Positions 1,687 to 36,500 of a DNA stretch of 53,798 nucleotides are shown here, piece by piece. The DNA is from a virus (lineage: Duplodnaviria > Caudoviricetes). Numbering within the stretch: the stretch's first letter is position 1; the number at the start of each line of letters is the position of its first letter. The translations under genes and the position numbers were made by a program. The DNA lies in the IMG/VR virus record IMGVR_UViG_3300031576_001304, positions 1-53,798 of that record; one strand, 5' to 3'. The notes beneath the pieces were generated by a model. The model ran no database searches. It worked only from the letters and a program-made list of their open reading frames with translations, and was not told the DNA's origin.

Positions 1687-3054
1687 CTACTCGGCTTCTT
1701 CTGGGACATCCAACTCAGCGCGATTCGCAAACAGCGTGAAGTCGCGCAAGAACACCAGTTTAGCCGTGCCGGTTGGACCGTTCCGTTGCTTTGCCAAGAT
1801 GAGGTCTGCCAAGCCACGCAGGTCTTCCCGGTCTGGCTTGTAGTATTCCTCTCGGAAGATGAACGCCACCACGTCGGCGTCCTGCTCGATGTTCCCCGAC
1901 TCCCTCAAGTCCGAGAGCCTGGGCCGGTGGTCTTCCCTCGTTTCCGGCCCGCGGCTCAACTGCGAAAGGGTGACGATGGGGACGTTCAGGTCCTTCGCCG
2001 CAAGTTTCAGGCCCCTGGTCATGATCCCCAGTTCCTGGTTGCGGTTGTCGGCTCTACGGCCGGTATCCATGAGTTGGAGATAGTCGATGATCGCCAGGTC
2101 CAGGCCCTGCTCCATCTTGAGGCGTCGGAGCTTGGAAAGTATGTCCATCACGGAGCACGTGGCTGAGTCGTCGATATACAACTTCGACTCCACAATGTCC
2201 GTCGCTGCTAGGCTGAGCCGCCTCCTCTCATCCTGGTTCAACATGGCACCCCTCACCTTTTGGGAGTCCACCCGGCCCGCCGCCGTTATCATTCGCACCA
2301 TCAACGTTACGCGTGACATCTCCAGCGAGAAGATCGCAACCGCCTTGCGTTGAGACACTGCGGCGTAGGCGGCGATGTTCAGTGCCATGGCGGTTTTCCC
2401 CGCACCTGGACGCGCTGCAATGATCGACAACTCCCCAGGCTGAAAGCCTCCTGTCAATTCGTCGAACGTGCGGAACCCGGACCGCACTCCATTGGAAACG
2501 GTTCCCTGATCGAGCAAGCCTTGGAGACCGCCGGGGTAGTTCTCGATGATGGACATGGCTGAAAGCAGGTCACTGCCAGGCAATTCCTGACTGATACCCA
2601 GGATTCTGTCGCTCGCCTCCTGGACCAGCACATCTCCCTGCCGCTGGTCCATGAGGGCTTCGTTGAGGATGTTGTTGGCAGCGAATGCCAGGCGCCTCTT
2701 GATGGCCTTGTCCTTAATGAGGCGGATGTAGCTGTCGAGGTTGTACAGGCGCGGTAGGCCGTCGTCGAGCGTAACGAGGTAGGAGAGGCCGCCAACGGTT
2801 TCCAGCTTTCTCTGTGTCAGCAGTTCGTTAGAGACCGTGATACGGTCGATCCTCTCGCCCCGCTCGCAAAGGACCTGCATCACCGAGAAGATTCGCCGGT
2901 GCGCCTCCGTGGTGAAGTCGTCCGGCCCCAGGCCACCGGCGACCACGGGGAAGTTGGTGTCGTCGAGCAGAACCGATCCGAGCACGAGCTTCTCGGCTTC
3001 CAGGTTCGATGGGAGCCCGCGCTCAAGGGCTACATTCTGCATCGTTGTCTCCAT
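1687..3054 (-). CDS. dnaB: Replicative DNA helicase DnaB
   Basis: Walker A ARPGAGKT, FSLEM, IIDYLQLM, LSQLSR, LRESGNIEQDAD, KQRNGPTG; full length, no intein. Confidence 0.97.
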   Translation of the reverse strand: METTMQNVALERGLPSNLEAEKLVLGSVLLDDTNFPVVAGGLGPDDFTTEAHRRIFSVMQVLCERGERIDRITVSNELLTQRKLETVGGLSYLVTLDDGLPRLYNLDSYIRLIKDKAIKRRLAFAANNILNEALMDQRQGDVLVQEASDRILGISQELPGSDLLSAMSIIENYPGGLQGLLDQGTVSNGVRSGFRTFDELTGGFQPGELSIIAARPGAGKTAMALNIAAYAAVSQRKAVAIFSLEMSRVTLMVRMITAAGRVDSQKVRGAMLNQDERRRLSLAATDIVESKLYIDDSATCSVMDILSKLRRLKMEQGLDLAIIDYLQLMDTGRRADNRNQELGIMTRGLKLAAKDLNVPIVTLSQLSRGPETREDHRPRLSDLRESGNIEQDADVVAFIFREEYYKPDREDLRGLADLILAKQRNGPTGTAKLVFLRDFTLFANRAELDVPEEAE

Positions 3055-4189
3055 TCAGCTTCAGCGTGAAGGCGGGGGTGATCTTGGCGATAACCCGAAG
3101 AGCCTCGGGCATTCCGGCGCGCTTCTTGGCCTTGGCGAACGACTTCAGCTTCGCGCTGCTTACCGTCAGGGAGCCGAGCGGAATATCCCAGTCCGGCGAG
3201 ACGGTTGGCAAATCACCGAACCCGAACAGCCGTAGAACCTTGTCCATTGCGAACTCCGTTCGCTCACCCGGCACGAGCTCAGCCGCCATTCCGCCTCCCA
3301 AGTCCACCTTGCCGGCGTTCTGGAGGTAGGTTCTCAGTGCGTCTTCCGCCTTCGACACCCAGGACTTCCCGGCCTTCAGGCGAAGCGCCAGGGCGCGCGC
3401 GTCTTCGGTCGTCTGCAATGGGCCGATGTCCAGGGTTCCCTTGGCGACGTCGGCCCGCAGCGGGCACGTGAACGTGCAGAAACCGCACAATCCGGCGTTG
3501 GGGTTGACAGGCATCTCTTCGGCGCGTCCGAAGGCATCGATGATCGACCCGATGTGTCGACGTGCGGCAATGACTTGGGCTTGCATCCATTCCATGTCCC
3601 CGCGCTGGAAGCTCACGCTCTTGGGTGCCCTGGCGCGGATGAACTCCCAGTCGAACCGGACGGCTTCCACCCAGGGGAAGTGGGCGAAAACCAACGTGGC
3701 GTAGTGGAGCGCCTCGTACTCGTCCATCGCACCCCACCCAGTCTTGTAGTCGTCTATCACGGCTTCGGCGCCGTGGACCGACAGCAGGTCGATGGTGCCG
3801 TGTGCAAGGGCCGCCTCCGGCCTCTCCCCAGGAGTTCCGCCGATGCGCATGTCCAGTGGACGGAACTGCTCATCGACGGAGAGGAACAACTCGGCGGCGA
3901 AGACCTTCCTCGGGTCGATCGAGAAGGTCTCCATATCGTCGAGCACGAGGGGGAGCGCCCACTCGCCGATCTGCAAGGCTTCGAGCCTGCCCATGATCCA
4001 TTCCTGGTCGGAGTGTTTTCCGGTGGCGATCAGGTGATCGACATAACCACGTCGGTAGCGGTGGAAGTCGGTGCCGGCTTCCGCCGGCCGACTTTGAGTG
4101 GTGAGCGCACCACCGGAAAGATGCGACAGTGCGAAGAACCGCGGACAGCCCGCGGCCTTCGCCAGCGACTTTGAGACAGAGAGATTCAT
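3023..4189 (-). CDS. PD-(D/E)XK exonuclease, Cas4/RecB-like, probable Fe-S cluster
   Basis: GTIDLL...IDDYKTG core; N-terminal CPR plus C-terminal CGFCTFTC; ATGA overlap at 4186-4189. Confidence 0.8.
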   Translation of the reverse strand: MNLSVSKSLAKAAGCPRFFALSHLSGGALTTQSRPAEAGTDFHRYRRGYVDHLIATGKHSDQEWIMGRLEALQIGEWALPLVLDDMETFSIDPRKVFAAELFLSVDEQFRPLDMRIGGTPGERPEAALAHGTIDLLSVHGAEAVIDDYKTGWGAMDEYEALHYATLVFAHFPWVEAVRFDWEFIRARAPKSVSFQRGDMEWMQAQVIAARRHIGSIIDAFGRAEEMPVNPNAGLCGFCTFTCPLRADVAKGTLDIGPLQTTEDARALALRLKAGKSWVSKAEDALRTYLQNAGKVDLGGGMAAELVPGERTEFAMDKVLRLFGFGDLPTVSPDWDIPLGSLTVSSAKLKSFAKAKKRAGMPEALRVIAKITPAFTLKLNGDNDAECSP

Positions 4190-5442
4190 GCTCCCGCTCC
4201 GTTCTTGTCCGCTGCATCCTTGGCTGCTAGGAGTGCGCCTTCCTTGGTCCCCTGGAAGGTGGCGAGCCACGCCTCCGAGTCCACCGGCTTGATGCCTTGC
4301 CCGCGGAACAAGCACGCCTGAAGCACGCTCAGTTCGAGGGGCGTGAAATCCGCAGGTGTCAGCCCGCGCTTCGGCCCGTTCGATCCGATGATCTCCGGCA
4401 CCCAGTCTTCGCGGTCTTCGTGCGCCGAAGCCTCGGCGATCTTCTCAACCAGATCGCGAACGACCTGCTTCACGTCCTTCCGGTTGAGCAGCAAACAGCC
4501 CGCTACGTTCTCGACGGCGTGCGCCTTGAGAATCTCCGCGCCAGCGTCCTTCGAGCCGGTCAGTTCCTCCAGTTGCCACAGGAGATCCGACAGTACCTCG
4601 GCGGCGGCGTTCCGGTCCGTCATCCGCGCCCAGGCCGCCCTGACGCTCTCGGTGGCGTCGTCGCCGTTCTGCTGGCCGTTCACGGCCCCGTTCTGTTGTG
4701 GCGCCTGGCGCGGTGTCCCCTTGAGCCAGTCCGCGAACACCTGGAAGTCGGTCGCCTTGGGCTGGTCGATCACTTTCGGCATCTGTGGGCACCGGGTCTT
4801 GTCCAGCACGAACTCGTTGTGCTCGGTCATCGTTCCGACGAGATCGAATTCGTACTCCAACCCGTCTCGCTGCACCGGTGCCAGTCCGACCTTGACGCGC
4901 TTCGTCTTCTTCACGCCGTGCTGGTTCACGAACTCCTCGGTGGTGTACTCGTTTTTGGTCCGCATCGTACAGATGACGTGCAACGGCGAAGCCAGCATCC
5001 GATCCACCATCCGGCGCTCGTTGGGCTGCCAGTCCTTCCACCCACCGAATTTGTCGCCGCTTTTCTTGCTGCGGGTGTCGACGAACTCCAGGGCGCCATC
5101 CTTTCCCATCCAGAAGTGGCTCAGCGAGTCGCAGAAGAACACGACATAACCGGCGATCTCGGCGGCGGCCAGGGACTCCAGGAAGACCTCGTGTGAGAAG
5201 CTGTCCGGTTCCAGGACATCGAAATCGAATGTGTACACGTTGTCGGCCAGGCCCCCGTCCGGTGGGGCGTACTTCGACAGGGCGCCGTGCTCGGTGTCCA
5301 CTCCGCAAATACCGCCGTCCTTGCCGGCCAGCAGCCGGGCAATCCTGAGTAGCGTCAGGCTCTTTCCGCTGCCGGCCGGCCCGACCAGCGCAACGCGGGC
5401 GCGGGCATCGTTCTTGACAGCTTTCCTAAATGCAATCTGCAT
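4186..5442 (-). CDS. AAA_24 / Sak4-like recombination ATPase
   Basis: GPAGSGKS, DTEHG, DSLSHFW, QRDGLEYEFD, KTRC; paired with the exonuclease. Confidence 0.85.
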   Translation of the reverse strand: MQIAFRKAVKNDARARVALVGPAGSGKSLTLLRIARLLAGKDGGICGVDTEHGALSKYAPPDGGLADNVYTFDFDVLEPDSFSHEVFLESLAAAEIAGYVVFFCDSLSHFWMGKDGALEFVDTRSKKSGDKFGGWKDWQPNERRMVDRMLASPLHVICTMRTKNEYTTEEFVNQHGVKKTKRVKVGLAPVQRDGLEYEFDLVGTMTEHNEFVLDKTRCPQMPKVIDQPKATDFQVFADWLKGTPRQAPQQNGAVNGQQNGDDATESVRAAWARMTDRNAAAEVLSDLLWQLEELTGSKDAGAEILKAHAVENVAGCLLLNRKDVKQVVRDLVEKIAEASAHEDREDWVPEIIGSNGPKRGLTPADFTPLELSVLQACLFRGQGIKPVDSEAWLATFQGTKEGALLAAKDAADKNGAGA

Positions 5443-5863: not shown

Positions 5864-6790
5864 CTACTCCTCGTCGAAGGTGATACAGCGGTTGGCGCCC
5901 TCGACCACCAGCGTGTCCAGGGTGGCCTTGATGTCCGACAGGCTGCTCTGGACTCCCGCGCGAAGGGATTCGTTGCTTCTGAGCTTGTCCGCATCGAGGC
6001 CTTCGAGCAGACTCACCGCTTGGTCAACGAGTCCTTTCAACTGCTGGTCGTCTGTGATGTTTCGGGCGTCGAAGGTTCGCAGGAATTCGGCCAAGTTTTC
6101 GACCGTGGTCTTGTGGAAGGTCTTTTTCTTGCCGTCCGCTCCCGGCTCCAGGCGCTCCACCATGTGGGTAACCAGCTCCTGCATCGTGGCGCGGAGAAGC
6201 TGCTGGATTTCGTTCGTTGCCTCGGCGACCTTCGCGGCCATCTTGTCGCGCTCGGCCTCGAAAAAAGCGGCGCTGATCTCGCGCAGTTTTCCGGGCGTAG
6301 TGAACGTCACGTACTGCCACTCCAGTGTGAACGCCGACCGGACCTTCCCCTCGGACGGATAGTCATCCGGGTTGTACAGATCCTGGAGCTTTGCGGCGGC
6401 TTCCTGCTTCCGCTGCTCGTACGCGGCCAGGAAGTCGTCCACGAGCTTCTGCCGGCTGACGTTGTAGTCGTGCAGGGTGTTCTCCACGTTTGGGACCAGC
6501 GTCATTGGCAGCAGGAAGATTCCCGACTTCATCATCGACGGCAAGCAGAGTTTGTACAGGTACGTGCGGATCTCTCCGTCGAGCTTGCGGATGGCCCTCA
6601 ACTCCGGCGAGTCGAGCAATTGCTTGGACGCCGCGATCCACGCCTTGTCCGCGTCCACATCGACCTGGGACGCCGAGATCTTGCGGCGATTTCCGATGGC
6701 TCCGAATGTGACCGTGAGGCTCACGGCGCGGTCAAAGATGCTGCCTTGGGGTTGGGTGTCCGGGGACACCGGTAGTGTCGTAGCTTCCAT
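5864..6790 (-). CDS. DUF3150-like helical protein
   Basis: Strong RBS (AAAGGAG); ASKQLLD, LCLP, GIFLLP and YNPDDYP pattern typical of this phage/ICE family. Confidence 0.6.
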   Translation of the reverse strand: MEATTLPVSPDTQPQGSIFDRAVSLTVTFGAIGNRRKISASQVDVDADKAWIAASKQLLDSPELRAIRKLDGEIRTYLYKLCLPSMMKSGIFLLPMTLVPNVENTLHDYNVSRQKLVDDFLAAYEQRKQEAAAKLQDLYNPDDYPSEGKVRSAFTLEWQYVTFTTPGKLREISAAFFEAERDKMAAKVAEATNEIQQLLRATMQELVTHMVERLEPGADGKKKTFHKTTVENLAEFLRTFDARNITDDQQLKGLVDQAVSLLEGLDADKLRSNESLRAGVQSSLSDIKATLDTLVVEGANRCITFDEE

Positions 6791-6816: not shown

Positions 6817-7035
6817 TTAGGAATTCGGAAGGCGCTCGTCCCGCGCGGCAATCTGCCGGCGGTAGGCTTCCGGGCTGAGGCCCAGTAATTCAGCAGCGAG
6901 CACGTTGGACAGCGCGCCCATGGCTCCCATGGAAAACTCCATGAGAGACTCGCTATCAACTTTGCGCCAGTAGGCGTACTCGGCGACGAGCAGGTCGCCA
7001 AGCTCGCGCCTGATCCGGGTCTCTTCGGCGCTCAT
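6817..7035 (-). CDS. Hypothetical protein (MSAEETRIRRELG...)
   Basis: ATGA overlap with the upstream gene; RBS GAGGGAG. Confidence 0.6.
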   Translation of the reverse strand: MSAEETRIRRELGDLLVAEYAYWRKVDSESLMEFSMGAMGALSNVLAAELLGLSPEAYRRQIAARDERLPNS

Positions 7036-7238
7036 TGATTCTCCCTCGCGTGCTCGTGCTGGTGGGTGTGGTGCAGCGCGTACGGCCGCTTCTGGCGCGT
7101 CGTCTGGCCGCCGGCCAGCCGTGCCATGAATTGCAAGAAGGCTTCCGCGTTCTGGTGGTTGGCGGCGCTGACCTTGCCGGTCGTCGTCTTGATTGTCCCG
7201 TCCTCGGTAATCTCGATCTCCAGGGTGTCGTTGTTCAT
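7032..7238 (-). CDS. DUF2997-like small protein with His-rich tail
   Basis: LEIEITEDGTIKTTT...G pattern; same operon as DUF1257 and the Ycf46-like ATPase. Confidence 0.6.
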   Translation of the reverse strand: MNNDTLEIEITEDGTIKTTTGKVSAANHQNAEAFLQFMARLAGGQTTRQKRPYALHHTHQHEHARENQ

Positions 7239-7465
7239 GCTCTCCCTCGCTTTTTTGCCAACAACTTCTCTTCTCGCGCAACGCGGGCGGCGATCTTGGC
7301 TCCAGTTTCGAAGATGCAATCGTACGGTACCGTGTAGCCCGTTCGCCTGCCCTTCTCCCGGATGAACAGGGAGTGGGTTCCGAGTTCGATTGAGAGATGG
7401 CGCTCTCGGTAGGTGGCCTCCGTCTCGAAGCGCGCCCGTGTTTTCCGAACGGCGATCCGGCTCAT
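7235..7465 (-). CDS. Hypothetical protein (MSRIAVRK...)
   Basis: ATGA overlaps on both sides; RBS GGAG. Confidence 0.65.
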   Translation of the reverse strand: MSRIAVRKTRARFETEATYRERHLSIELGTHSLFIREKGRRTGYTVPYDCIFETGAKIAARVAREEKLLAKKRGRA

Positions 7466-7659
7466 GCCGCTTTCTCCCTCCGGCAGTCGTGGACAACGGC
7501 CCCTAACTTCACTAACCGGCCAACCTGGATGTCCGCGTCTCCGTCGTCCAGGCCTGCCATGATCGGCCGCCAGTCGCCGGTCTTGTTGCTCTCGAACTGG
7601 AAGCAGCCAGGCTCTTTCAGGTCGGGCCGCAACCGGAATGCTCCGCTCGGCGCTTTCAT
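7462..7659 (-). CDS. Hypothetical protein (MKAPSGAF...)
   Basis: RBS AGGAGG; ATGA overlaps. Confidence 0.65.
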   Translation of the reverse strand: MKAPSGAFRLRPDLKEPGCFQFESNKTGDWRPIMAGLDDGDADIQVGRLVKLGAVVHDCRREKAA

Positions 7660-8267: not shown

Positions 8268-8612
8268 TCAGAACCTCCTCTGCGCCATCATCTGGCGCTC
8301 ACTGACCTTCTTGACGTTCCAGCCAAACCGCTTCGATGCGGCCAGGACTATCTGCGTCGAATAGGCCCGCTTGACGGCGTTCACGTGCTCGGGGGCGGCC
8401 CCGTTCGGTCCGCCGATCACTACCGTGCCATCCGTTTTGACCCGGATCGAGACCCGGTTGCCGTAGTGATCCGCCACGAGCGACGCGTCGAACTGTCGCG
8501 CATACTCCGGAGTGCCGACCGCGAACCCCAGGTTTTCCAGCGCAGCCCGGAGCATGTCGAGGTTCGGGTTCTTCAGGTCGAGCGTCGTTTCAATCTTGTT
8601 CCAGCACGGCAT
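8268..8612 (-). CDS. DUF1257 / Ycf35-like protein
   Basis: TTLDLKNPNLDMLRAALENLGF...RAYS...ASKRFGWNV pattern; linked to the Ycf46-like ATPase. Confidence 0.65.
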   Translation of the reverse strand: MPCWNKIETTLDLKNPNLDMLRAALENLGFAVGTPEYARQFDASLVADHYGNRVSIRVKTDGTVVIGGPNGAAPEHVNAVKRAYSTQIVLAASKRFGWNVKKVSERQMMAQRRF

Positions 8613-9363
8613 CGAAGACCTCCTTGGGAAATGAAAAACTCATCCAAGGGGCGTACAGCGCCCCGTTGATCTTGCAGATACTCAACACAAGCGGGTCTAT
8701 GTCCTGACCGTGCAGCCTCAGGCTGTAGTTGCTCGCGTGGAGCAACATCCGACCCGTGCCGATGCACGGATCACAGACCGTCTTCGCGCGGTGGTCGCCG
8801 TCGCCGAACGTCATCTGAACCATGCACTCGACGACGTTGTGGGGCGTTGGGTAGAACCCCGTGTTGTTCCACTTGTTCGACTTACGCTCCGAGAGCATGG
8901 TTCCAAGGTGGTCGTAGGGTGCGACGACGACCGGGCCGACGTTGAACTGCCGGTAGAGCTTCTCTTCGGTGTCATGGTCCATTCCGCGGTCCTCGTCGGA
9001 TACGGCCAGCGCGAAGGCCAACCAATCGACCAGACGGCGGAAACTCTCGAACGAGCCGTAGCGGTGCTCGATGATCGAGACCGCGCCATCGAGTTGCTTC
9101 ATGGCCTCGTGGTCGGGGCCGTCGAGGAACCGAATCTGCGGGATTGGCTCGTCGAGCAGACGGCCGGCTTCGCGTGTACGGAAGTAGTAACCCCACCTGT
9201 CCGGCACGTCCGGGTGCCGAGCGTGAATCTCAATCACGTACCAGAGCAACCACCCGCGGTAACGCCACGGCGCGACGGCGTCACCCAGGCGCGGGAGCCG
9301 GCCTGTTTGGGTGGTGAAGGCGATCAGGTCTGGTGTGGGTGGGGGCGCGGGAAGCGCGCTCAC
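8590..9363 (-). CDS. N6-methyltransferase-like SAM-binding protein lacking the NPPY motif
   Basis: GFYPTP (motif X), DPCIGTGRML (motif I), GQDID (motif II); ends before motif IV. Confidence 0.7.
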   Translation of the reverse strand: MSALPAPPPTPDLIAFTTQTGRLPRLGDAVAPWRYRGWLLWYVIEIHARHPDVPDRWGYYFRTREAGRLLDEPIPQIRFLDGPDHEAMKQLDGAVSIIEHRYGSFESFRRLVDWLAFALAVSDEDRGMDHDTEEKLYRQFNVGPVVVAPYDHLGTMLSERKSNKWNNTGFYPTPHNVVECMVQMTFGDGDHRAKTVCDPCIGTGRMLLHASNYSLRLHGQDIDPLVLSICKINGALYAPWMSFSFPKEVFDAVLEQD

Positions 9364-9560
9364 TCGTCGCGCGGAGACTGCATGCGCCGTTCCTGTATCT
9401 CGGTTTTGGCGATCAGTTCGCCGCGGAATTGAATGGCGAGCTCGCGGATTTCCAGGCAGTCGTCGCGCAAGGCGGCGAGGAACACGTCTTCCGATTCATG
9501 GAAGTGGTGATCCGCGAAGGCGCGCGTGTAGGTCAGCAGGGCACGGACACGATTTCTCAT
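9360..9560 (-). CDS. Hypothetical protein
   Basis: ATGA coupling; RBS GGAGG. Confidence 0.6.
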   Translation of the reverse strand: MRNRVRALLTYTRAFADHHFHESEDVFLAALRDDCLEIRELAIQFRGELIAKTEIQERRMQSPRDE

Positions 9561-9563
9561 TCG

Positions 9564-11027
9564 TCAATCCTCCACGCTGATCGTTCTCGCGGTCGTTGAG
9601 ACGCCCGCGGTCTTGTCGTACCGGTAGACTCCCGGATTACTTGCGCTGATGAAGCGCCCGTTCGCCTGCTGGCGCAGCCGGTCGATCTGATCGGCTGCGC
9701 TCCTGGACACCGGGACGATGTAGGTTGCCGCTTCCTGCAAACTGGACTTGAGCCGGTACGCCAGGTCACAGCACTGCCGGATCTCCGCGCCGGTCCATCC
9801 CTCGTCGTTGGGGACCTCGTCGCCGCGGCCGAACTTCTTGCAGTAGATCCGCCAGATCGACTCGCGCTCTTCGGCGGTCGGAAGGTCGAAGAAGAACGTC
9901 CCGAACGTAAAGCGCCTTCTCAGTTCCGGCGGAAGGACGCCAATCGAGTTACACGTCGCGATGAACAGCGACCGCCCCTGACTGACGGCCTGAACGACCT
10001 TCAAGCTCTGCCTGAGACGCGCTCCGGACTCGCCGACCAGGGAGCCCTTCATCCCGGCCAGATCGAAGGCAATCGTCGGAATGCCGGCCGTGTTCCCAGT
10101 GGCTTTCGCGATGGCCGATTTCGCGGCTCCGGGCGGGCCTATGAAGATGACGCCCTTCGCTTCGTTGTCCTGCATCCACGAGAGCAGCGTCCCGGTCATT
10201 TCAGTTGAGACGCCGGATAGGTCAGTACCCGTGCCGGCGAACTGCTTCTCGATCTCATCGAGGAAAACCACGGCCCGCGGCGGCTCCGCGCCGTTCAAGA
10301 TGCGGCCCATGAACGTCTTCGCGTTCTCGCAGCCTCCGATTTGATCGAACGTCTCACCGCCGCGCCAGACCGAGAGGCCAGGAGTCGCCTCGATCATCTT
10401 CCGCTTGCGCTCCCACAGGGCGTCGAAGTCCAGCCCGTCGCGCGTGATCGACATTGCCGCGACCTGCTCGGCCGGGAAAGCTGCGAGACCACAGAGCGCA
10501 TCAACGGCCCGCACCGTTACGTCGTCGGCTGGCGGCTTCAAGTCGGCCGCTTTATACGTTTCCTTGACTATCACGACCAATTCATCGTTCGTCGGAAGCG
10601 GTTCGTCGAGCAGAAGCACGTCCTGGGCGATTTCTGCCGGGAGCGTCAGATCGGGCGCGAGTAGGACCAGGGTCCGCATGTTCTGCTTGAACTCGTCGCG
10701 GAGATTCCAGACGGCCTGGGATACGCCTTGCTCTCCGACCACGCGGTGAATGTTCTCGAAGAACACCAGCGCCTTTCCGGGGAGCTGCCCGCAGAGCCCG
10801 AGTGCCTCGACCGGGTTCGTGGTCGTCGTCGGATCGACGTTGAGGTTGGAGACCGCCTGTTGTCCGGCCGTGTTCATCCCGGCCAATCCGGTGACGATGT
10901 TCCAGCGCAGCATGGGCGTACCGTTGAAGCTCTTGGCGATGGTTGCGATGGTCGCCGCGGGATCGGCTGTGCGCACCGCGATCAGTGGAGTGCTCACCCG
11001 GCGGGCGGCTTTGAATTGTTGAATCAT
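9564..11027 (-). CDS. Ycf46-like AAA+ ATPase with permuted Walker B/Walker A order
   Basis: Ycf46-type N-domain; VVFLDEIEK lies before GPPGAAKS; also SLVGES, FIATCN, LPPELRRRF, FFFDLP, GWTGAEI. Confidence 0.85.
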   Translation of the reverse strand: MIQQFKAARRVSTPLIAVRTADPAATIATIAKSFNGTPMLRWNIVTGLAGMNTAGQQAVSNLNVDPTTTTNPVEALGLCGQLPGKALVFFENIHRVVGEQGVSQAVWNLRDEFKQNMRTLVLLAPDLTLPAEIAQDVLLLDEPLPTNDELVVIVKETYKAADLKPPADDVTVRAVDALCGLAAFPAEQVAAMSITRDGLDFDALWERKRKMIEATPGLSVWRGGETFDQIGGCENAKTFMGRILNGAEPPRAVVFLDEIEKQFAGTGTDLSGVSTEMTGTLLSWMQDNEAKGVIFIGPPGAAKSAIAKATGNTAGIPTIAFDLAGMKGSLVGESGARLRQSLKVVQAVSQGRSLFIATCNSIGVLPPELRRRFTFGTFFFDLPTAEERESIWRIYCKKFGRGDEVPNDEGWTGAEIRQCCDLAYRLKSSLQEAATYIVPVSRSAADQIDRLRQQANGRFISASNPGVYRYDKTAGVSTTARTISVED

Positions 11028-11179
11028 CTCGCCTCCTTCTCCGAGAACTCAACCCAGGCCCGCGCGAGCTCGACAGCTTCTTTGTGTGGGCACGGCCCGG
11101 TGATCGTGATGGCCCTCCGGTACACGCCGTGAACGATGGTCAGGTTCAGGACGGCGTCGTAGGTCACGGTGATCTTCAC
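11024..11179 (-). CDS. Small hypothetical protein (MKITVTYD...)
   Basis: GTGA and ATGA overlaps. Confidence 0.55.
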   Translation of the reverse strand: MKITVTYDAVLNLTIVHGVYRRAITITGPCPHKEAVELARAWVEFSEKEAR

Positions 11180-11325
11180 GCGACCACCTTCTCGACCGTG
11201 AGCCAATATCTCCACCGGCGACCTTCGATGAATGGCTCGACGGCCGTCACGCGCCAGAGAGAACCATCTACCGCGGTAAGCACATCGCCGATTGCCTTCG
11301 GAGCCGAGTGGACTATCTTTCTCAC
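11176..11325 (-). CDS. Small hypothetical protein, 49 aa (MRKIVHSAPKAIGDVL...), not in the ORF track
   Basis: GTGA overlaps at both ends; RBS GAGGTGG. Confidence 0.55.
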   Translation of the reverse strand: MRKIVHSAPKAIGDVLTAVDGSLWRVTAVEPFIEGRRWRYWLTVEKVVA

Positions 11326-17813: not shown

Positions 17814-18286
17814 TACAGGAGTTTGTTCACCACGTTCGCCTGGGTACGGAGATCGACACTTGCTGCACGTTGGCCGGGATTGGACGCGAGACGTTCTACC
17901 GCTGGAAACGTCGAGTCGCCGCGGGCAAAGGCGACAACCTCCAGCGCAAACTATTCAGCGAGCTTGAACTCGCCATCGCAGACTACGAGGCGCTTCTTCA
18001 GCGCCTTATTCTCAAGGCCGGCGAGAAACAGTGGTATGCGCTGGCTTGGCTTGCCGAGAGGCGGTTCCCAAAGAAGTACGGCAGAAAACGGCCATACGCC
18101 GATGATCCTGACGGATCGCAGCAGCGCGTCGTGGGTGCCAGGTTCTCGCTGTTCGGTCAGCCCGCATGGGATACACCTACACGCCAACCCGATCCGGGCT
18201 CGTCTACGACCGATGGATTGACGGCTACAGACCGTACCCCGGCCAGCGACGATTCCACGAGCTCCGGTCCAGGTACAAGGGGCTGA
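17780..18286 (+). CDS. Terminase small subunit (HTH)
   Basis: MARPSKL...LAGIGRETFYRW...AWLAERRFPKKYGR; directly precedes TerL. Confidence 0.75.
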   Translation: MARPSKLDERLIQEFVHHVRLGTEIDTCCTLAGIGRETFYRWKRRVAAGKGDNLQRKLFSELELAIADYEALLQRLILKAGEKQWYALAWLAERRFPKKYGRKRPYADDPDGSQQRVVGARFSLFGQPAWDTPTRQPDPGSSTTDGLTATDRTPASDDSTSSGPGTRG

Positions 18287-19542
18287 GTGGACCAATCGGG
18301 ACCGGGAAGACCAAGGCTGCCTGCTACGAGGGGATCAAGCTCTCTTACGCGAACTCCGGTTGCGTCGGTCTGATCGGTGCACGGACGTACCGGATGCTGG
18401 CCGACGTCACGAAGCGGACGTTCCTGGAGATTCTCCGGGAAGAGCAGATACCTTACGACGACCGGCCGTCCGACAACAAGGTGACCTTGACCGAGCCGGG
18501 GTCCGAAGTCGTCTTCCGGTCCCTTGAGAACCCGGACTCGCTGCGTGGTCCGAACCTGGCATGGTTCGGGTGCGACGAGCTCAGCTACGCCAGCAAGGAC
18601 GCCTGGAGAGTGCTTGAGGGTCGCCTGAGAGAGCCGAAGGCGGTGTTGCTCTGCGGCTTCGGGGGGTGGACTCCGAAGGGCTTCAACTGGGTCTACGACA
18701 AGTTCGTCAGCCCAGAGAAGCCAGCCGGCTACGAAGCGGTGATTGCTTCGCCGGCCGAGAACCGGGCGATCCTCGACAAAGACCCGGACTTCTACGAGCG
18801 ACTGAAGGGCTCGTACGACGAGCGGTTCTACCGCCAGGAGGTCCTGGGTGAGTACCTGTCGCTTACGAGCGGTACCGCGTATTACGCCTTCGAACGTACG
18901 GGCAACTGCGCCGAGGTAGGGTTTGATCGGCGAGCGCCGCTCTGCTGGTCCATGGACTTCAACGTCAACCCGATGTGCTCCGTGCTGTCCCAGGTTGTCG
19001 ATGGCCGGGTGCTGGTTCTGGATGAGATCGTTCTGCCGGACTCCAACACACACGAGGCGTGCGAAGAGTTCCTGGTGCGCGCTGAGCAGTATCGCGTGAT
19101 CCTGCGTGGCGATCAGTTCGGCAGCGTTAAGCTGACCGTCCACGTCTACGGCGATGCCAGCGGGTCTTCTCGGAGCACCGCGGGCCGGTCTGACTGGCAG
19201 ATCGTGCGCGAGTTCTTCGGTCGGCACTCTGACAAGTTCCAGGCCGTGTTTCGCGTTACATCGTCGAATCCCATGGTGCGGGATCGTGTGAACGCGGTTA
19301 ACGCGATGCTTCGGAACTACGCCGGTAAACGGCGGCTGCTGGTCGGGACCAGGTGCAAGGAGTTAGTCCGGGATCTGGAGCGCGTCCTGTGGCGGCAAGA
19401 CACGAGCGGCAACGTGCTGTCACAGCTTGACAAGTCCGATCCGGCTCGAACCCACATATCGGACGGCTTGGGTTACATGATTGACCGCGAGTTCGGGCTG
19501 CGGGTTAAGGGCGGGCCGCGAACAGAAAGTTTGGGGGTGTGA
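18166..19542 (+). CDS. terL: Terminase large subunit
   Basis: Walker A GPIGTGKT, LRGPNL, Walker B WFGCDE, TPKG, nuclease SMDFN, GDASG, HISDGLGY. Confidence 0.93.
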   Translation: MGYTYTPTRSGLVYDRWIDGYRPYPGQRRFHELRSRYKGLSGPIGTGKTKAACYEGIKLSYANSGCVGLIGARTYRMLADVTKRTFLEILREEQIPYDDRPSDNKVTLTEPGSEVVFRSLENPDSLRGPNLAWFGCDELSYASKDAWRVLEGRLREPKAVLLCGFGGWTPKGFNWVYDKFVSPEKPAGYEAVIASPAENRAILDKDPDFYERLKGSYDERFYRQEVLGEYLSLTSGTAYYAFERTGNCAEVGFDRRAPLCWSMDFNVNPMCSVLSQVVDGRVLVLDEIVLPDSNTHEACEEFLVRAEQYRVILRGDQFGSVKLTVHVYGDASGSSRSTAGRSDWQIVREFFGRHSDKFQAVFRVTSSNPMVRDRVNAVNAMLRNYAGKRRLLVGTRCKELVRDLERVLWRQDTSGNVLSQLDKSDPARTHISDGLGYMIDREFGLRVKGGPRTESLGV

Positions 19543-20645: not shown

Positions 20646-20899
20646 GCCACGTTCCGATTGTGCTCCAACTTGTCCTCTCAATCGGCGGGGCGGTGGCGGC
20701 CGTGTTATCCGCATTCTTGACCATGCGGGTCAAGCTGGAAATTGCGAGCCTGCGCGCGGATCTGGCCGAGCGCCGAGAGCGAGACCGAGAGGAGCTACGG
20801 AACTGGATCAACGGGTCGTTTCTTCGGTCAGCCGTTGCCGAGGCGCAACTTCAAGCCTTGGGGGAGCGCCTGAAAGCAGTGGAGGATTCCATTGCCTGA
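20642..20899 (+). CDS. Single-TM coiled-coil protein, possibly holin-like
   Basis: N-terminal TM helix followed by a charged coiled coil. Confidence 0.55.
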   Translation: MSHVPIVLQLVLSIGGAVAAVLSAFLTMRVKLEIASLRADLAERRERDREELRNWINGSFLRSAVAEAQLQALGERLKAVEDSIA

Positions 20900-22367
20900 T
20901 GTCTCTTTGCCCATCAATCAGCTCGACGCACGCCACCCGTCGCTCACCGAGGGCCTACTGGAAGCCTGGGACTCAATTGATCTTCTGGCGTCTGGCGGTC
21001 ACCAGATCAAGGCGGCGGCATCGCGCTTTCTCTGGAAGCGTGAAAAGGAACTGTCCGAGGTCTACCAGGCACGTCTGTCGGCCTTCACGTACCAGGACAT
21101 TCTCGGGACGGCGACCGGCTGGTATGAGGCCGCAATGTTTGCGGACGACCCGGATATATTCATCAAACCCGACACCGAAGAGTTCTACGTAGCTTTTCTC
21201 GAAAACTGCGACCGTGCCAGAACGAGCCTGGCGCACCTGTTCCGCAAGGTGTTCCTGGATCTTATGCGTTTCGGGTGCTCGTGGATTCTGACCGATCTGC
21301 CAAGGCCGGACGGGGCCCCCGTGACCTTGGCAGAGCAGAGGGCGGCGGGGGCGCTGGACCCGTACCTGGTGCTCTACGATCCGAGGCAAGTCATCAACTG
21401 GGACACGGACCAGCACGGCAACATCACATGGGTGGTTGCCGCTGCGTCTACCGAGCAGCGCGGCTTTGCCGCTGAGCCGGTTGTTGTGGATCGCTGGTAC
21501 TACTTCGACCGTAACGAGTACAGGGTGTACGAGGCGCGGCGCGAGAAGCGAGACGAGAAGGCGACAACAGCAACGCTGGTTGATTCCGGTCGTCATGCCC
21601 TGTCCCGTGTTGGCCGAGTCCCGCTACGCCGGCTGTGTGTGCCATCAGAATTGTGGATCGGCAACCGAGCTCTGTTGCCGGCCGTGGCGCACCTGAATTT
21701 ACAGAACGCTCACAACTGGGGGCTGCATCGGTCGTGCCTTCCGGTCTTGTACGTCAAGGGCGATTTCGAGCATCCGCCATCTATCTCGGAAGTGTCGTAC
21801 CTGCACATCTCGGAGAAAGGCGAGATCGGATACGTCGAGCCGTCCGGTTCCACCTATCAGGTTGCGGCTGATGAGATTGGCCGGCTCCGCGAGGAAACCT
21901 ACCGGCAGATGTACCTCCAGGCGCAGGGCCGTTCAACGGAGGCCACGCCTGCGGCGCAAAGCGGAGTGTCGAAGGAATTGGACATGGCGCCAGCCCGCGA
22001 CATCCTGAACGGGTTCGGCGACATCCTTCTGGCCGGAATGCGGCAGGTGCTCGAAGACGTAGCCGCCGCCCGCGGCGATAACCTGACGTTCGACCTGCGC
22101 GGGTTCACGTTCGACGATCAGAACGTGGACACCGAGATTCGGAGCGCCCAACACGCCCTGGACCTGGCCATTCCGAGCGAGACGCTGGAGCGCGAGATCC
22201 AAAAACGGGCGGCGCGTTGCTTGCTCAAAGATGCCCGGCCCGAGCTCGTCGAGAAAGTGGAGGCCGAGATCGACGGTGCATTGACACGCCGGGAGACACA
22301 GATTGAGGACGAGGAGCGCCAAGCAGGGCGGTTCCGGGAATCGCTCGGACAAGGGGTGAACGAATGA
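20892..22367 (+). CDS. Portal protein (DUF4055-like)
   Basis: Size and position; YQARL, WILTDLP, PYLVLY..QVINW, SGVSKELD. Confidence 0.85.
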   Translation: MPDVSLPINQLDARHPSLTEGLLEAWDSIDLLASGGHQIKAAASRFLWKREKELSEVYQARLSAFTYQDILGTATGWYEAAMFADDPDIFIKPDTEEFYVAFLENCDRARTSLAHLFRKVFLDLMRFGCSWILTDLPRPDGAPVTLAEQRAAGALDPYLVLYDPRQVINWDTDQHGNITWVVAAASTEQRGFAAEPVVVDRWYYFDRNEYRVYEARREKRDEKATTATLVDSGRHALSRVGRVPLRRLCVPSELWIGNRALLPAVAHLNLQNAHNWGLHRSCLPVLYVKGDFEHPPSISEVSYLHISEKGEIGYVEPSGSTYQVAADEIGRLREETYRQMYLQAQGRSTEATPAAQSGVSKELDMAPARDILNGFGDILLAGMRQVLEDVAAARGDNLTFDLRGFTFDDQNVDTEIRSAQHALDLAIPSETLEREIQKRAARCLLKDARPELVEKVEAEIDGALTRRETQIEDEERQAGRFRESLGQGVNE

Positions 22368-23190: not shown

Positions 23191-24090
23191 ATGGCGAATG
23201 AAATTACTTCCGCGAACGTCGCCCAGGCCATTGTCAAACTGGTCGCAGCGCGCGCGCTCCCCGCCCTTGTCAACAACCTGGTCATGGGCAACCTGGTCAA
23301 TCGGGACTTCGAGGCGACACTGGCGCAGGCCGGCGACACCGTGAACGTGCCGATTGCTCCGGCGATGACCGCCAACAACATCGCCGAGGCGGGAACGGTC
23401 ACAAACCAGAACCCAAGCTTGGGCAACGCGCAGATCGTGCTGAACACGCACGCCGAAGCGACGTTCCAGATTCCCGACGTGACAAAGATCCTGGCGCTCC
23501 CCGATCTGATGGCGATTTACATGCGCCCGGCGATCAACGCCTTGGCCGAGAAAGTCGAGGGTGACCTGCTCGGCTTGTACGCGAACCTGACGGCGAACGC
23601 GGCGGTCGGTACCGGCAATACGGCGCTGACCGAAGCCGTTATCGACAACGCGGAGACGGCCTTGTTCAAGGCCAAAGTTCCGGCGCCGGAACCAAAATTC
23701 CTGGTGCTGAGTTCGGACGCCTACGCACAGGTGCGTCAACTCGCGCGCTTCACCGAGTCGCAGACCCTCGGCAGTGGAGCCGCGATTGCCAGCGGCGCGG
23801 TCGGAACGCTGAAGGGCTTCAGCGTGTTCCGTTCTCAGGGGGTGAAGAAGGTTTCGACCACGACCTACAACCTGGCGTTCGCTCGTGACTCCTTTGGTTT
23901 GGTCATCCGGCGCCTGCCGCAGCCCCTTCCCGGAACTGGCGCCATCGCCGAGTATGCCGAAGAGGGCGGGTTTGGCGTGCGCGTCATCATGAGCTACCAG
24001 CCCAACACGTTGGCACAGCAGTTCACGGTGGACGTGCTTTATGGAGCCGCCGTGTTGCGTAACGTGTTCGGGGTCCAGGTTCTCAACTAG
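23191..24090 (+). CDS. Major capsid protein (HK97 fold, P22-coat-like)
   Basis: VNRDFE...GDTVNVP, VGTLKGF, VDVLYGA; strong RBS AAAAGGAG. Confidence 0.9.
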   Translation: MANEITSANVAQAIVKLVAARALPALVNNLVMGNLVNRDFEATLAQAGDTVNVPIAPAMTANNIAEAGTVTNQNPSLGNAQIVLNTHAEATFQIPDVTKILALPDLMAIYMRPAINALAEKVEGDLLGLYANLTANAAVGTGNTALTEAVIDNAETALFKAKVPAPEPKFLVLSSDAYAQVRQLARFTESQTLGSGAAIASGAVGTLKGFSVFRSQGVKKVSTTTYNLAFARDSFGLVIRRLPQPLPGTGAIAEYAEEGGFGVRVIMSYQPNTLAQQFTVDVLYGAAVLRNVFGVQVLN

Positions 24091-33536: not shown

Positions 33537-36500
33537 ATGCCAGGTAACTCATACGAGCTCGTCTTCAAGATCCAGACCACGGGCCAGAAAGAACTGGACC
33601 GCGTGGCGGGTGCGGTTTCACGCATCGGCTCCGAGGTCAAAAGTCAACTGCCTGGAGTCACTGGGCTGGAGGCGCAGTTCCGTAAAGTCTCCAGCGAGGC
33701 CAACAACACCAGCGCTGCCCTGTCGGGCGTCGGTGCGTCTGTGCGTAGATCGCTACAAGACCCGATTGGTGCGGCAACGGCATCCATCGAGGGCTTGCTG
33801 GCTGGCTTCGGTAAGGTCGGGATTGTTGGTGCCGCGCTCGGCATCGGTCTTGGCTTCATCGGAAAGAAGGCATTCGATCTCGTATCTGCGTTTGGGACAG
33901 CGGCAGAAGAGGCGGTCAACCTTGCCGACCGACTCGGTATTTCAGTCCGAGAGGCCGAGCAGCTTCATGCAGCCGCCCACATCGCCAACGTCAATATCGG
34001 TGTCCTGGAAAGCTCTACCAGGCTTCTCGCCGAGGCGCTGTCGGATACCGCTGGCGGTGGAGAGAAGACCAGCCGCGCACTTGAGCGGCTCGGTATCAGC
34101 ACGACGACCGCGACCGGAGGGCAGCGCGAGATGGGCGCCGTTCTGCTGGAGGCGCTGTCTCGGTTGTCGCAGGTTGAGAACACCGCTGATCGCGTGCGCT
34201 TGGCGAACGAGTCCCTGGGGCGGGCAGCGAAAGAACTCCTGCCACTCATCAAAAACTACAAGGAACTCCGTGCGGCGGTTGCTTCTCTGGGTGTTGGGCT
34301 GGACGAAGACCTGACGCGTAGACTGGCCGGCCTTGACGACCAGATCGACAAACTCGAAATCGCCTGGGGGCAGTTCAAAAAATCGCTGGCCGGAAAGATT
34401 GCGCCTATCGTCCTTCCGGTAGTTGTCAGCATGACCGAGAGCCTGTCCGGGAAAAAGGGCCAGCCAACCAAGGGCCCGCCCCAGGGCCAGCTTAGCTCTG
34501 GTGAGGGGATGGGTCGTGCCGTTAACATCGGCGGCATTCTCCGTGCTCTTGCCGGCCAGCGAGGGGATGGGGGTGGTCGGGGCGCAATCGTATCTGGCGA
34601 TATTGCGGCGCTTCGAGCCTGGGACGCGGCATCCGAGCTTGACACTAGCAGTATTCTGTCCTCCAGTATCAGCGCCGCAACTCGGCCTGCGTTAGACGCG
34701 GCGAACGCTCAGATCCGCGCAGACTTGGACCGCGGCAAGAAATTGGCCGCGGCGTTTAAGCTGGCGCGGGCCTCGACCGATGACGCGCTCAAGAAGCGTC
34801 TTGAGGTCGTCAAGGGCCAACTCGCAGAGCTCGATACTGTCCTCTCTGGGGATCTGGGCGCTTCGGCGTTCGGCAGGAAGAAGGCAGAGTTCGACCAGTT
34901 GACGGTAGAGGCCGCCAAGATCGAGGCCCAAATCAAGGCCGCCTCGGAGCGTCAGTCTCTCATTGCGCGCCTTCCTGACATGGTGAAGCAGTCGCGACAG
35001 GCCGGATTGACTGCCCTGGAGCGCCTGAACGATGAGCACCTGGCGCTCATCGAAAAGCTCGGTCCCGGCTTTGACAAGCGCGTTGCTGACATCTTCCGCA
35101 ACATGCGACAGGTCGAGATCCAGAAGATTATCACGGACGGACGAAAACAACTCGCCAACACGGTAAAGGAGTCCGAGCAGGAGGCAAATAAACTCCTGGA
35201 GTGGAGCGCGAAGCAGTTCAGCGAGCGCCTCGGCAAGGGGGTTGAGGAAGACCTGCGGGCGGTTCAGTCTCTCTCCGCGACACTGGATGTTTTCGCCAAT
35301 GCCGAGCGTGATCGGCTTACGCGGCGTGCGGGTCTGGCTATTCGCGCCGGTGAACTGACGGCGGCTCCCGGTGGAGAACAGGCGGCGGCAGAGCAGGTTT
35401 ACCGCATCCGCCTTCAACTCGCCGAGGATCTGTACCAGGCGGCTAAACGGCAATCCGATCTTGAAGTAGACGCCGCGCAGCGCAACTTGGAATTGACGAC
35501 CGCACGCGCGCAGTACGAGCAAAACATCGACGAGGCACGGATCGACAATGAGCTTAAGCTCCTGGAGATCAGGCGTAAGTATCTCGACGAGTACCGCGAA
35601 ACCGCTGGTCGGGTATTCGACGCGTTGACGGCGCGCGGCGGTGGCGGGTTGCGCGACTTCCTTGGCGGCCAACTGAAGATCCTGGAGCGCCAGATCTTCG
35701 TCAACGCTTCTGCCGGCATCTTCCAAATGGCGGGCGGTGCGCTCGGCAAGATCGGCGCCGCAAGCGGTTTGGGCGGGCTTCTGTCGGGCACAATCTTCGA
35801 CCCGAAGAACGCCGCGCCGGTGGACCGTAACACCGCGTCCCTGAACCGGAACCGCACCAGTCTGGACAAACTGACTGGTGTCATCGCCGGCTTCGGGATT
35901 CCCGGCCAGGCGTTCTCCGGCTCTGGTCCAGGCGGCCTGATCTTCGGTGACCTGCCGCTAAACTCCGGCCTGGCCGGAACAAACAACCGCAGGTTGATGG
36001 GGTTGCTCGGGATTACTCCATCCGGCGGGTCAACGCAGCGTGGCGCGTTCCAGCAATTCCTGGGCGGACTGTCTGCGCCTCTTGGTGGTAACCCTCTCGG
36101 AGCGATCTTCTCGCCAAGCGGAACGTCAGTTCAGACCGGGCCTGGCCGGGCGACCACATACACCGGGGCCGAGCGGGTTGGGGCGGCGGTCGGAACCGGA
36201 GCTACGGTAGCCGCTGGCACCTTAGGCGTGATCGGCGGTATCCGGCAGGGCGGCGCACGTGGAACCACCCAGGCCATCGGGAGCGCCGCGGCTACCGCCG
36301 CTGCTCTTGATCAAGAGCCAGTCAGCAAGGCCGTTCTCACGGCCGTTGCGTTTGGCGCGAGCCTCGTTAGCGCACTGCTCGGCGATCCGAAGCAGGAGCG
36401 CGACGAGGCAATCGCCATGGCGCTCCAGCGCGCCAGATTCCAGGACCCTACCACTATCAACAGGTTCGCTGACCTTTCCGGTGTCGAGCTTGACTACGAT

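Follow-up and report, generated by a model that had tools for sequence, protein, structure and literature searches.

The gene at nucleotides 9564–11027 (minus strand) of the IMG/VR record IMGVR_UViG_3300031576_001304, a 53,798-nucleotide stretch of Caudoviricetes DNA that was analysed at its full length and is referred to here as the window, encodes an AAA ATPase in which the block carrying the Walker B motif precedes the block carrying Walker A. The exchange of the two blocks is confirmed at the sequence level as real and not an artefact. It recurs throughout a very large protein family of soil phages, whose main carriers are Acidobacteriota phages and prophages. As judged from these sequences, the exchange is a genuine non-circular permutation of the AAA core that is both ancient and abundant. 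P-loop NTPases are, to our knowledge, universally taken to have Walker A ahead of Walker B, and rewiring of the AAA core in this manner appears to be undescribed so far.

We propose that the protein is a classical AAA ATPase of phage or prophage origin, Ycf46-like in its architecture, with an N-terminal pseudo-ATPase AAA domain and one catalytic AAA domain. Within the catalytic domain, the segment comprising β1, the P-loop, α1, β2, pore loop 1, and α2 would have changed places along the chain with the segment comprising β3 (Walker B), pore loop 2, and α3. The three-dimensional fold would be kept, with strands in the order 5-1-4-3-2 and the Asp–Glu pair beside sensor 1 and the P-loop, and reconnection would be confined to three loops from a helix to a strand, all of them at the N-terminal edge of the sheet, opposite the active site: α0 would lead to β3 (formerly to β1), α3 to β1 (formerly to β4), and α2 to β4 (formerly to β3). 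The swap would have arisen once, in the ancestor of a very large clade found mainly in Acidobacteriota phages and prophages, and strong purifying selection would have kept every catalytic residue. Such selection makes an active, ring-forming, ATP-driven protein remodeller the most likely product. Taken as a whole, this reading (a Ycf46-like phage AAA protein with exchanged blocks, a conserved fold, a single origin, and probable activity as a ring remodeller) is one that we hold with considerable confidence.

Motif order and distribution of the block exchange

The open reading frame (ORF) is continuous over 487 residues plus a stop codon, and its sequence, together with AlphaFold2 and structure matches, predicts a tandem AAA protein in which a pseudo-ATPase domain, D1, precedes a rewired D2 that is active. 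Along the chain the motifs run Walker B (residues 253–258), Walker A (297–304), pore loop 1 (327–334), and sensor 1 (360), so that the classical linear order of AAA proteins (Walker A, pore loop 1, Walker B, sensor 1) does not hold. Divided at the block boundaries, the catalytic domain reads GG..PPR / AVVFLDEIEK..SGVS..LLSWMQDNEAK / GVIFIGPPGAAKS..FDL..SLVGES..SQGRS / LFIATCN / LPPELRRRF; as uninterrupted sequence, the region reads ..GGETFDQIGGCENAKTFMGRILNGAEPPR then AVVFLDEIEKQFAGTGTDLSGVSTEMTGTLLSWMQDNEAK then GVIFIGPPGAAKSAIAKATGNTAGIPTIAFDLAGMKGSLVGESGARLRQSLKVVQAVSQGRS then LFIATCNSIGVLPPELRRRF... The first-pass annotation, made from the DNA sequence alone, had placed VVFLDE and GPPGAAKS in this reversed order within one open frame, and both the positions it gave and the open frame are borne out.

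The N-terminal AAA-like domain (residues 1–215, nucleotides 10383–11027) has canonical order and degenerate motifs, with TADPAAT at the P-loop position and FFENIH at the Walker B position; it was delimited by alignment to p97 D1+D2 and is collinear with canonical relatives. It is followed by the GG loop, helix α0 (residues 234–244), and the linker NGAEPPR, from which the chain enters the Walker B strand (together residues 216–250, nucleotides 10278–10382), a region assigned from the sequence, AlphaFold2, and hhalign. Block B (residues 251–290, nucleotides 10158–10277) precedes Walker A and holds the Walker B strand (252–256, followed by Asp257 and Glu258), the pore-loop-2 region, and α3 (273–287, ..SWMQD), as delineated by sequence, phmmer, hhalign, AlphaFold2, and covariation; the Walker B motif VVFLDE itself, defined by family conservation, occupies nucleotides 10254–10271. 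Block A (residues 291–352, nucleotides 9972–10157) comprises β1 (291–296), the P-loop, α1, β2 (318–321), pore loop 1, and α2 (333–349) and was assigned from sequence, Pfam, phmmer, AlphaFold2, and hhalign. Within it lie the Walker A motif GPPGAAKS (nucleotides 10116–10139), again from family conservation, and pore loop 1, KGSLVGES (nucleotides 10026–10049), which in the phmmer alignment falls on the K[YW]VGES loop found in p97 and VAT. Strand β4 with sensor-1 residue Asn360 (SLFIATCN, residues 353–360, nucleotides 9948–9971; conservation, AlphaFold2, and hhalign) is joined straight to α2. The arginine-finger region RRR (residues 370–372, nucleotides 9912–9920) follows, as recognized by conservation, and the helical lid and C-terminal tail (YIVPVSRSAADQIDRLR..; residues 383–487, nucleotides 9567–9881), assigned from AlphaFold2, hhalign, and sequence comparison, complete the protein; the tail is common to canonical relatives. 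All of these features lie on the minus strand, and the three breakpoints coincide with the starts of three β-strands: PPR/A(VVFL), EAK/G(VIFIG), and GRS/L(FIATCN).

Profiles that depend on motif order recover the protein in pieces. The Pfam AAA profile (PF00004) scores 52.8 bits against a gathering cutoff of 21.2 (E 7.3e-14) in two stretches, the better of which (residues 293–347) covers profile positions 1–55 only, and the best PHROG family, phrog_8638, matches in four stretches. Swapped proteins can therefore be mislabelled as partial or degenerate. A phmmer search of the Protein Data Bank (PDB) pairs three consecutive pieces of D2 of the archaeal unfoldase VAT (5vc7 chain residues 319–379, 380–429, and 425–500) with query residues 289–349, 251–298, and 354–422, respectively; the pieces thus map out of order, with the canonical middle piece ahead of the first piece in the window protein.

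Canonical counterparts allow a more direct comparison. By tblastn, relatives with canonical order and 22–28% identity occur in other phages and a satellite (Mycobacterium phage Corndog gp96, Aeromonas phage HJ05_65, Rhizobium phage RHph_I4 gp084, and Streptococcus satellite Javan368_0002). They read ..PKG-hhh-G.PG.GK[ST]..VG.SE..-hhhhDE[IV][DE]K..SGVS..W/HMQE-hhhhATAN..LPPE and share with the window protein the N-terminal domain and the C-terminal VP[LV]S..I..LR tail. We collected 120 relatives of RHph_I4 gp084, and all 109 of those that are 520–600 residues long have the canonical motif order. Aligned by hhalign to a profile of these 109 sequences, the swapped profile gives a main match of probability 100 and E 4e-49 (query 2–467 on template 20–529) that leaves query block 252–290 and the template Walker B block each unpaired. 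A second, out-of-order match (probability 97.9, E 4.3e-13) places query residues ~250–293 (PRAVVFLDEIEK..SWMQDNEAKGV) on template residues ~352–398 (APCVVMLDEVDKAF..THMQETSAPLF), which lie downstream of Walker A in the canonical proteins. These alignments, like those to VAT D2, reproduce the two out-of-order local matches that the first-pass annotation had anticipated. Its further claim, that two internal blocks are exchanged without a circular permutation of the whole domain, is likewise upheld, as the flank ending in α0 and the flank from β4 onward are both collinear with the canonical relatives in the hhalign alignment. So is its assignment to Ycf46-type AAA proteins, given the full-length homology, N-terminal domain included, seen in the same alignment and the structural similarity to cyanobacterial Ycf46 described below.

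The reversed order is shared by every one of the 270 nearest homologs inspected. A word-indexed protein search scored 8000 candidates, of which 2811 reached E≤1e-3; the 120 homologs listed from it, each representing a 90% cluster and 58–69% identical to the query, all place Walker B before Walker A. A regular expression recognized the order in 114 of them, and the six misses are artefacts of the expression, five by sequence inspection and P0097 from its motif positions. An exhaustive phmmer search of 1.84 billion representatives of 50% clusters returned 7054 matches at E≤1e-3, 3877 at E≤1e-10, and 1320 at E≤1e-30. We inspected the order in the best 150 of the 7054, which are 43–62% identical to the query and all score above 418 bits, and it is swapped in 150 of 150: 146 align column for column with invariant motifs, and the other four are longer because they carry inteins, with the order kept. 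Relatives are also encoded by 221 IMG/VR stretches and at 54 loci in GTDB species genomes, nearly all of them Acidobacteriota assemblies (Terriglobia, Bryobacterales) and several with multiple copies. One such assembly carries five full-length copies and one fragment of the swapped gene on six contigs (L087, L088, L089, L091, L121, and, for the partial copy, L140), which suggests that a single genome or bin contains several related prophages.

This distribution bears on whether the order could stem from a misjoined or chimeric contig in this single record. The only sequencing run that contains the stretch is probably the source sample, represented by contigs only, and a second assembler's 16.5-kb contig, which covers window positions 9400–11200 with no differences and no joints, is not independent because it probably derives from that same sample. 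The order nevertheless recurs in all 270 listed homologs, which come from many independent assemblies, in 77 IMG/VR loci and 111 additional ORFs used in the alignments, and in gp103 (43% identity) of Tunturi_3, a cultured and completely sequenced phage of Tunturiibacter. Together with the agreement between the two assemblers, the open frame, and the invariant motifs, these observations leave misassembly a negligible prospect and answer the first-pass annotation's call for homologs of the same order.

Predicted fold and the position of the Walker B strand

AlphaFold2, run on a 150-sequence alignment of swapped members, gave a model with a mean predicted local distance difference test (pLDDT) score of 95.9 and a predicted template modelling (pTM) score of 0.90, a confident AAA fold of the kind that the first-pass annotation had suggested checking for. 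Its catalytic domain consists of helix 234–244 (α0), strand 252–256, a short helix 259–262, helix 273–287, strand 291–296, helix 303–314, strand 318–321, helix 333–349, strand 353–359, helix 367–372, strand 377–379, and a helical lid. Aligned with VIA-align, the model superimposes on p97 (7lmz_C) with a Z-score of 18.5 over 391 residues, model residues 1–459 lying on chain residues 212–763; since this range spans p97 D1 and D2, residues 1–215 correspond to a D1-like AAA domain in canonical order. Cdc48, AFG2, Rix7, and NVL score similarly to p97 by Foldseek and VIA-align, with a Foldseek E-value of 2.6e-13 for type II unfoldases. The catalytic domain alone matches p97 D2 (3cf0_A) with a Z-score of 16.3 and a root-mean-square deviation of 2.5 Å over 201 of the 244 model residues 216–459, and the helical lid aligns with p97 D2 up to residue 459. 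The ~43 residues left unaligned equal block B in size, as is expected of an order-dependent aligner if everything else is in place.

A single-sequence model from the ESM Atlas (pLDDT 0.83) has as its nearest structures outside the family clusters of cyanobacterial Ycf46 proteins, with a TM-score of 0.79 over 427 aligned residues. The Atlas tags the aligned part of several neighbours as PF30482 (P0001, residues 1–476), a family that the Pfam release searched does not contain, so the N-terminal domain may already have a Pfam entry. A complex prediction with three copies of residues 216–487 and three ATP molecules scored 0.01 against a mark of 0.42, with controls not run, and is evidence neither for nor against assembly.

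Residue covariation provides a second view of where the DEIEK strand lies. We applied mean-field direct-coupling analysis to 362 non-identical family sequences (effective number of sequences, Neff, 235) over columns 216–470, considering 31,125 pairs separated by at least 6 positions. The strongest coupling overall joins Ala252, at the start of the Walker B strand, to Ser349, at the end of α2, and Arg251–Gln350 ranks 20th; the positions in both pairs are direct chain neighbours in canonical proteins. The Walker B strand couples to the sensor-1 strand through Val254–Phe355 (rank 22), Ile259–Ala357 (rank 23), and Val254–Ser353 (rank 52), pore loop 2 to pore loop 1 through Ser274, Glu276, and Met277 with residues 324–335, and α3 to α2 through Thr280, Trp284, and Asn288 with Leu338, Arg339, and Gln346. 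When each of the ten strand–strand blocks is scored by the sum of its top three couplings, the four highest are b3'-b4' (5.04), b1'-b5' (3.36), b1'-b4' (2.99), and b3'-b2' (2.70). A 5-1-4-3-2 sheet has precisely these four pairs of adjacent strands, a coincidence expected once in 210 random rankings, and the offsets within the four pairs are constant, as in parallel strands. The evidence thus favours a canonical position for the DEIEK strand, between the sensor-1 strand and β2, and not the location away from the active site that the first-pass annotation had named as the finding that would overturn its proposal. As the strand covaries with its canonical sheet neighbours, the fold looks conserved and three helix-to-strand connections look rewired. 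The linkers concerned comprise 7 residues between α0 and β3 (NGAEPPR), 3 between α3 and β1, and 3 between α2 and β4, lengths found also in the canonical relatives. Because the three strands lie side by side in the sheet and no helix has to change faces, geometry suggests that the rewiring would need small loop displacements only.

The catalytic residues are retained almost without exception among 370 distinct aligned family sequences, in keeping with the functional fold that the first-pass annotation proposed. Glu258, Lys303, the pore-loop residue Gly332, the sensor-1 residue Asn360, and Arg372 are invariant (370 of 370 each), Gly297 and Gly300 are each present in 369, Lys261 in 367, and Arg371 in 349; position 257 is Asp in 368 sequences and Glu in 2, and position 304 is Ser in 345 and Thr in 25. 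The P-loop GPPGAAKS departs from the consensus GxxxxGK[ST] in having Ala in place of the Gly that precedes the invariant Lys and Ser/Thr. The first-pass annotation had remarked on this Ala, and the remark stands for the window protein; across the family, the position (302) is variable, with Ala in 229, Gly in 115, Ser in 17, and Cys in 4 of the 370 sequences. Residue 302 (nucleotides 10122–10124) covaries with residue 233 in the GG loop (nucleotides 10329–10331), Cys233 being combined with Ala302 in 141 rows and Leu233 with Gly302 in 64. The pair ranks fifth among all couplings, which suggests that one change in the nucleotide pocket is compensated by another.

Inteins typically occupy essential catalytic motifs. 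The four that interrupt members of the best 150 representatives (total lengths 653–896 residues) sit inside the P-loop (P0130 and P0225) or between the Thr and Cys of the sensor-1 sequence ATCN (P0123 and P0193), and the two P-loop inteins occupy different positions, one after GPPG and one between Lys and Ser. Their placement is consistent with both sites being functional.

The same data speak to an alternative in which the upstream DEIEK block lies outside the active site, so that the protein would be a pseudo-ATPase, would bind nucleotide without hydrolysing it, or would have its sheet arranged differently, and the block would be kept for pore-loop or partner contacts. The Ala or Ser that precedes the P-loop Lys in about two-thirds of members would fit such a protein, as would the fragmentary Pfam AAA matches. 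Yet Asp257 and Glu258 are as invariant as Lys303, Asn360, and Arg372, the domain offers no second acidic pair after a hydrophobic strand, and the couplings of Ile259 with Ala357 and of Val254 with Phe355 and Ser353 set the strand beside sensor 1. The standard Gly at position 302 in 115 of 370 members and the inteins in the P-loop and sensor 1 argue in the same direction, and we regard a non-catalytic DEIEK block as improbable.

A different alternative has block B complete the sheet of a neighbouring protomer in the ring, the rewiring then serving obligate oligomerization by three-dimensional domain swapping. Covariation is blind to whether a contact lies within or between chains, and the linkers that flank block B are short, with 3 residues to β1. 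They are, however, equal in length to those of the canonical relatives, and adjacent strands are ~5 Å apart, so that closure within one chain would, on geometric grounds, need no long linker. Both the AlphaFold2 and the Atlas models close the domain within a single chain with high confidence, which makes an exchange between protomers very improbable.

Origin of the exchange and comparison with known systems

A FastTree phylogeny of 70 rows (39 swapped and 31 canonical proteins) contains one branch, with a Shimodaira–Hasegawa-like support of 100, that separates all swapped from all canonical proteins, and a single such branch means that one event suffices. Two long branches (Corndog and Javan368) meet in this tree. 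Formally, the swap is a circular permutation of the internal A-B unit, and the classical way to reach it would be to duplicate the unit in tandem (A-B-A-B) and then delete the outermost A and the outermost B. The motif P[KR][GA] is found ahead of each block (PPRA at block B, EAKG at block A), an observation that fits this path without proving it. No A-B-A-B intermediate occurs among the 270 listed proteins, the ~6,900 lower-ranked matches lying outside this scope. Three candidate A-B-A intermediates were rejected: the second Walker A regular-expression matches in P0025 and P0033 are chance occurrences of G..G..K[ST] in the GG loop and α0, and the extra match in P0097 falls at residue 57, in the N-terminal domain.

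Several points weigh against the reading of an active, rewired ATPase of single origin. Few canonical proteins entered the tree (one subfamily and three phage proteins), and the misaligned block may itself add to the split. In the covariation analysis, which ignores phylogeny, only the b3'-b4' block (5.04) exceeds the 95th percentile of random blocks (4.36). AlphaFold draws on related alignment signal, so the model and the couplings are not fully independent, and both place Asp257 and Glu258 relative to the P-loop indirectly. The Ala or Ser in place of the P-loop Gly could alter nucleotide handling.

The data show directly the motif order and its conservation, the homology of each block to its canonical counterpart, a confident AAA model, couplings that agree with the canonical sheet, and a gene module in common with canonical relatives. 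For the rewired protein we infer ATP hydrolysis, a hexameric assembly, a protein substrate, cooperation with DUF1257 and DUF2997 proteins early in infection, and the route of origin outlined above. Its role is, as best we can infer, the ATP-driven remodelling or unfolding of a protein substrate by a ring early in infection, possibly together with the DUF1257 and DUF2997 proteins encoded nearby, as suggested by its p97-like build, by the conservation of its pore loops (SLVGES and the SGVS loop), and by its arginine fingers.

Among known systems, the closest are the canonical Ycf46-like AAA proteins (COG SpoVK/Ycf46/Vps4), which include RHph_I4 gp084, HJ05_65, Corndog gp96, and cyanobacterial Ycf46. 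They have the same layout of a pseudo-AAA N-terminal domain, one active AAA domain, a lid, and the VP[LV]S..I..LR tail, and the phage proteins also share the DEI[ED]K..SGVS..W/HMQ[ED] segment, the SLVG[EQ]S pore loop, and LPPEL..R. They differ in placing the segment from Walker A to α2 before that from Walker B to α3, in their low identity (22–28%), and in their P-loop, which is G.PG.GKS in all 109 canonical proteins compared with G.PG.[AGS]KS in the swapped family. The type II AAA unfoldases (p97/VCP/Cdc48, VAT, Rix7/NVL, and AFG2) provide the best structural match over both domains, the same layout of pore loops and arginine fingers, and the best PDB sequence match for the block from P-loop to α2 (E 3e-9). 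Unlike these enzymes, to which it is ~15–17% identical, the window protein has a catalytically dead D1 with degenerate motifs, no N-terminal substrate or adaptor domain, and a different core connectivity. The defence ATPase IetA/IteA was considered and set aside, as the matches are partial only (PADLOC IetA, E 1.5e-7 over residues 351–425; NCBIfam IteA, 23.8 bits against a cutoff of 510).

The permuted P-loop proteins known to us are the circularly permuted GTPases. These enzymes (YlqF/RbgA and YjeQ/RsgA) are P-loop NTPases with an altered motif order and a preserved fold. They result from circular permutation of the whole domain (G4-G5-G1-G2-G3) with new termini, and their P-loop still precedes the Walker-B-like G3. 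By contrast, the window protein keeps its termini, exchanges an internal pair of blocks, and has Walker B before Walker A, a comparison made without a targeted search for G4 and G5. A 2002 study by Bujnicki reportedly concerns, to go by its title, sequence-permuted DNA methyltransferases. Such enzymes set a precedent for permuted motif order in a Rossmann-like α/β fold, in another superfamily and with other chemistry.

The full-text literature, with most subscription journals outside its scope, yielded no account of an AAA or other P-loop ATPase with Walker B before Walker A. Where two of its papers use the word "permuted" (10.64898/2026.10.19.760177 and PMC10853773), the passages concerned deal with FHA domains and methylases, and the main text of the Tunturi phage paper (PMC11924767) contains none of the terms ATPase, AAA, and Walker.

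There is, in our estimate, a slightly better than even chance that this very large family is the first natural one among P-loop ATPases of the ASCE (additional strand, catalytic E) class to encode the Walker B strand ahead of the Walker A strand, by way of a non-circular permutation of internal blocks in which the 5-1-4-3-2 sheet and a functional active site are retained. If so, three adjacent connections from helix to strand can be rewired in the AAA+ core, and the chain order of motifs, which is assumed in every profile and textbook definition, is not dictated by the fold. One such event would in that case have become fixed and have radiated through Acidobacteriota phages. A natural exception that is conserved and shares the usual three-dimensional arrangement would represent a clean non-circular permutation in one of the oldest enzyme folds and a natural template for rewiring experiments, in which canonical and swapped orthologs could be compared within the same gene module. 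The family is abundant and forms part of a conserved early-gene module (AAA-DUF1257-DUF2997 with a DUF3150-like gene), and Tunturi_3 on Tunturiibacter psychrotolerans would offer a cultured system for functional work.

Gene neighbourhood

The window corresponds to an IMG/VR provirus record of Acidobacteriota with an estimated completeness of 97%. It encodes a DnaB-like helicase (1687–3054), a Sak4-like ATPase (4186–5442), a large terminase (18166–19542), a portal protein (20892–22367), a major head protein (23191–24090), and a tape-measure protein (33537–36674), along with an amidoligase-like gene and a ParB-like gene. The swapped ATPase gene sits in a minus-strand early or replication block.

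We compared its surroundings across 81 loci, namely the window and 80 viral contigs. The commonest neighbour is a protein of ~310 residues (cluster c1), present at 63 of the 81 loci and located downstream on the same strand in 58 of these 63. Its copy in the window (5864–6790, minus strand, downstream of the ATPase gene) encodes 308 residues, matches the hidden Markov model (HMM) of cluster c1 with E 2e-124, and weakly resembles DUF3150 (Pfam E 3.7e-4, below the cutoff). The c1 homolog of Tunturi_3 (gp96, positions 9621–10649 of locus L001, HMM E 2e-97) is labelled "HNH endonuclease" in GenBank; a Pfam scan of the window copy found no HNH signal.

Two further downstream genes on the minus strand are probably divergent versions of the DUF1257 and DUF2997 genes, the only versions found in the window. 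A 114-residue product encoded at 8268–8612 is probably DUF1257-like: it belongs to cluster c5 (HMM E 9e-34), which hhalign relates to the DUF1257 cluster c3 with a probability of 92, and the Pfam scan gave no direct match for it. The ORF at 7032–7496, whose start codon is uncertain, probably encodes a DUF2997-like protein of cluster c6 (HMM E 1.6e-30; c6 against the DUF2997 cluster c4, probability 91). DUF1257 proteins (clusters c3 and c7) occur at 28 of the 81 loci, or at 42 when the related c5 is counted, and DUF2997 proteins (cluster c4, to which c6 is related) at 17. The order AAA-DUF1257-DUF2997 is annotated in the canonical phage RHph_I4 (gp084, 086, and 087) and is found by HMM in HJ05 (65, 67, and 68), in Tunturi_3 (gp103, 102, and 101), and in many viral contigs. 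This common module places the swapped ATPase in the same functional module as its canonical relatives. DUF1257 corresponds to the ycf35 family, which in cyanobacteria is found clustered with DUF2997 (PMC4284462).

Between the ATPase gene and the DUF1257-like gene, a 257-residue ORF (8590–9363, minus strand) has a partial N6_Mtase match (Pfam E 7e-8) and PADLOC matches to MTase and mad2; it seems to have been inserted into the AAA-DUF1257-DUF2997 module, which is conserved otherwise. The start of the ATPase gene overlaps the stop codon of an upstream predicted ORF of 104 residues (ATGA, 11024–11027), and the next predicted ORF (9360–9560) begins 3 nucleotides past its stop codon. Such an overlap and gap form a layout typical of translational coupling, which may operate here if these two small putative ORFs are expressed.

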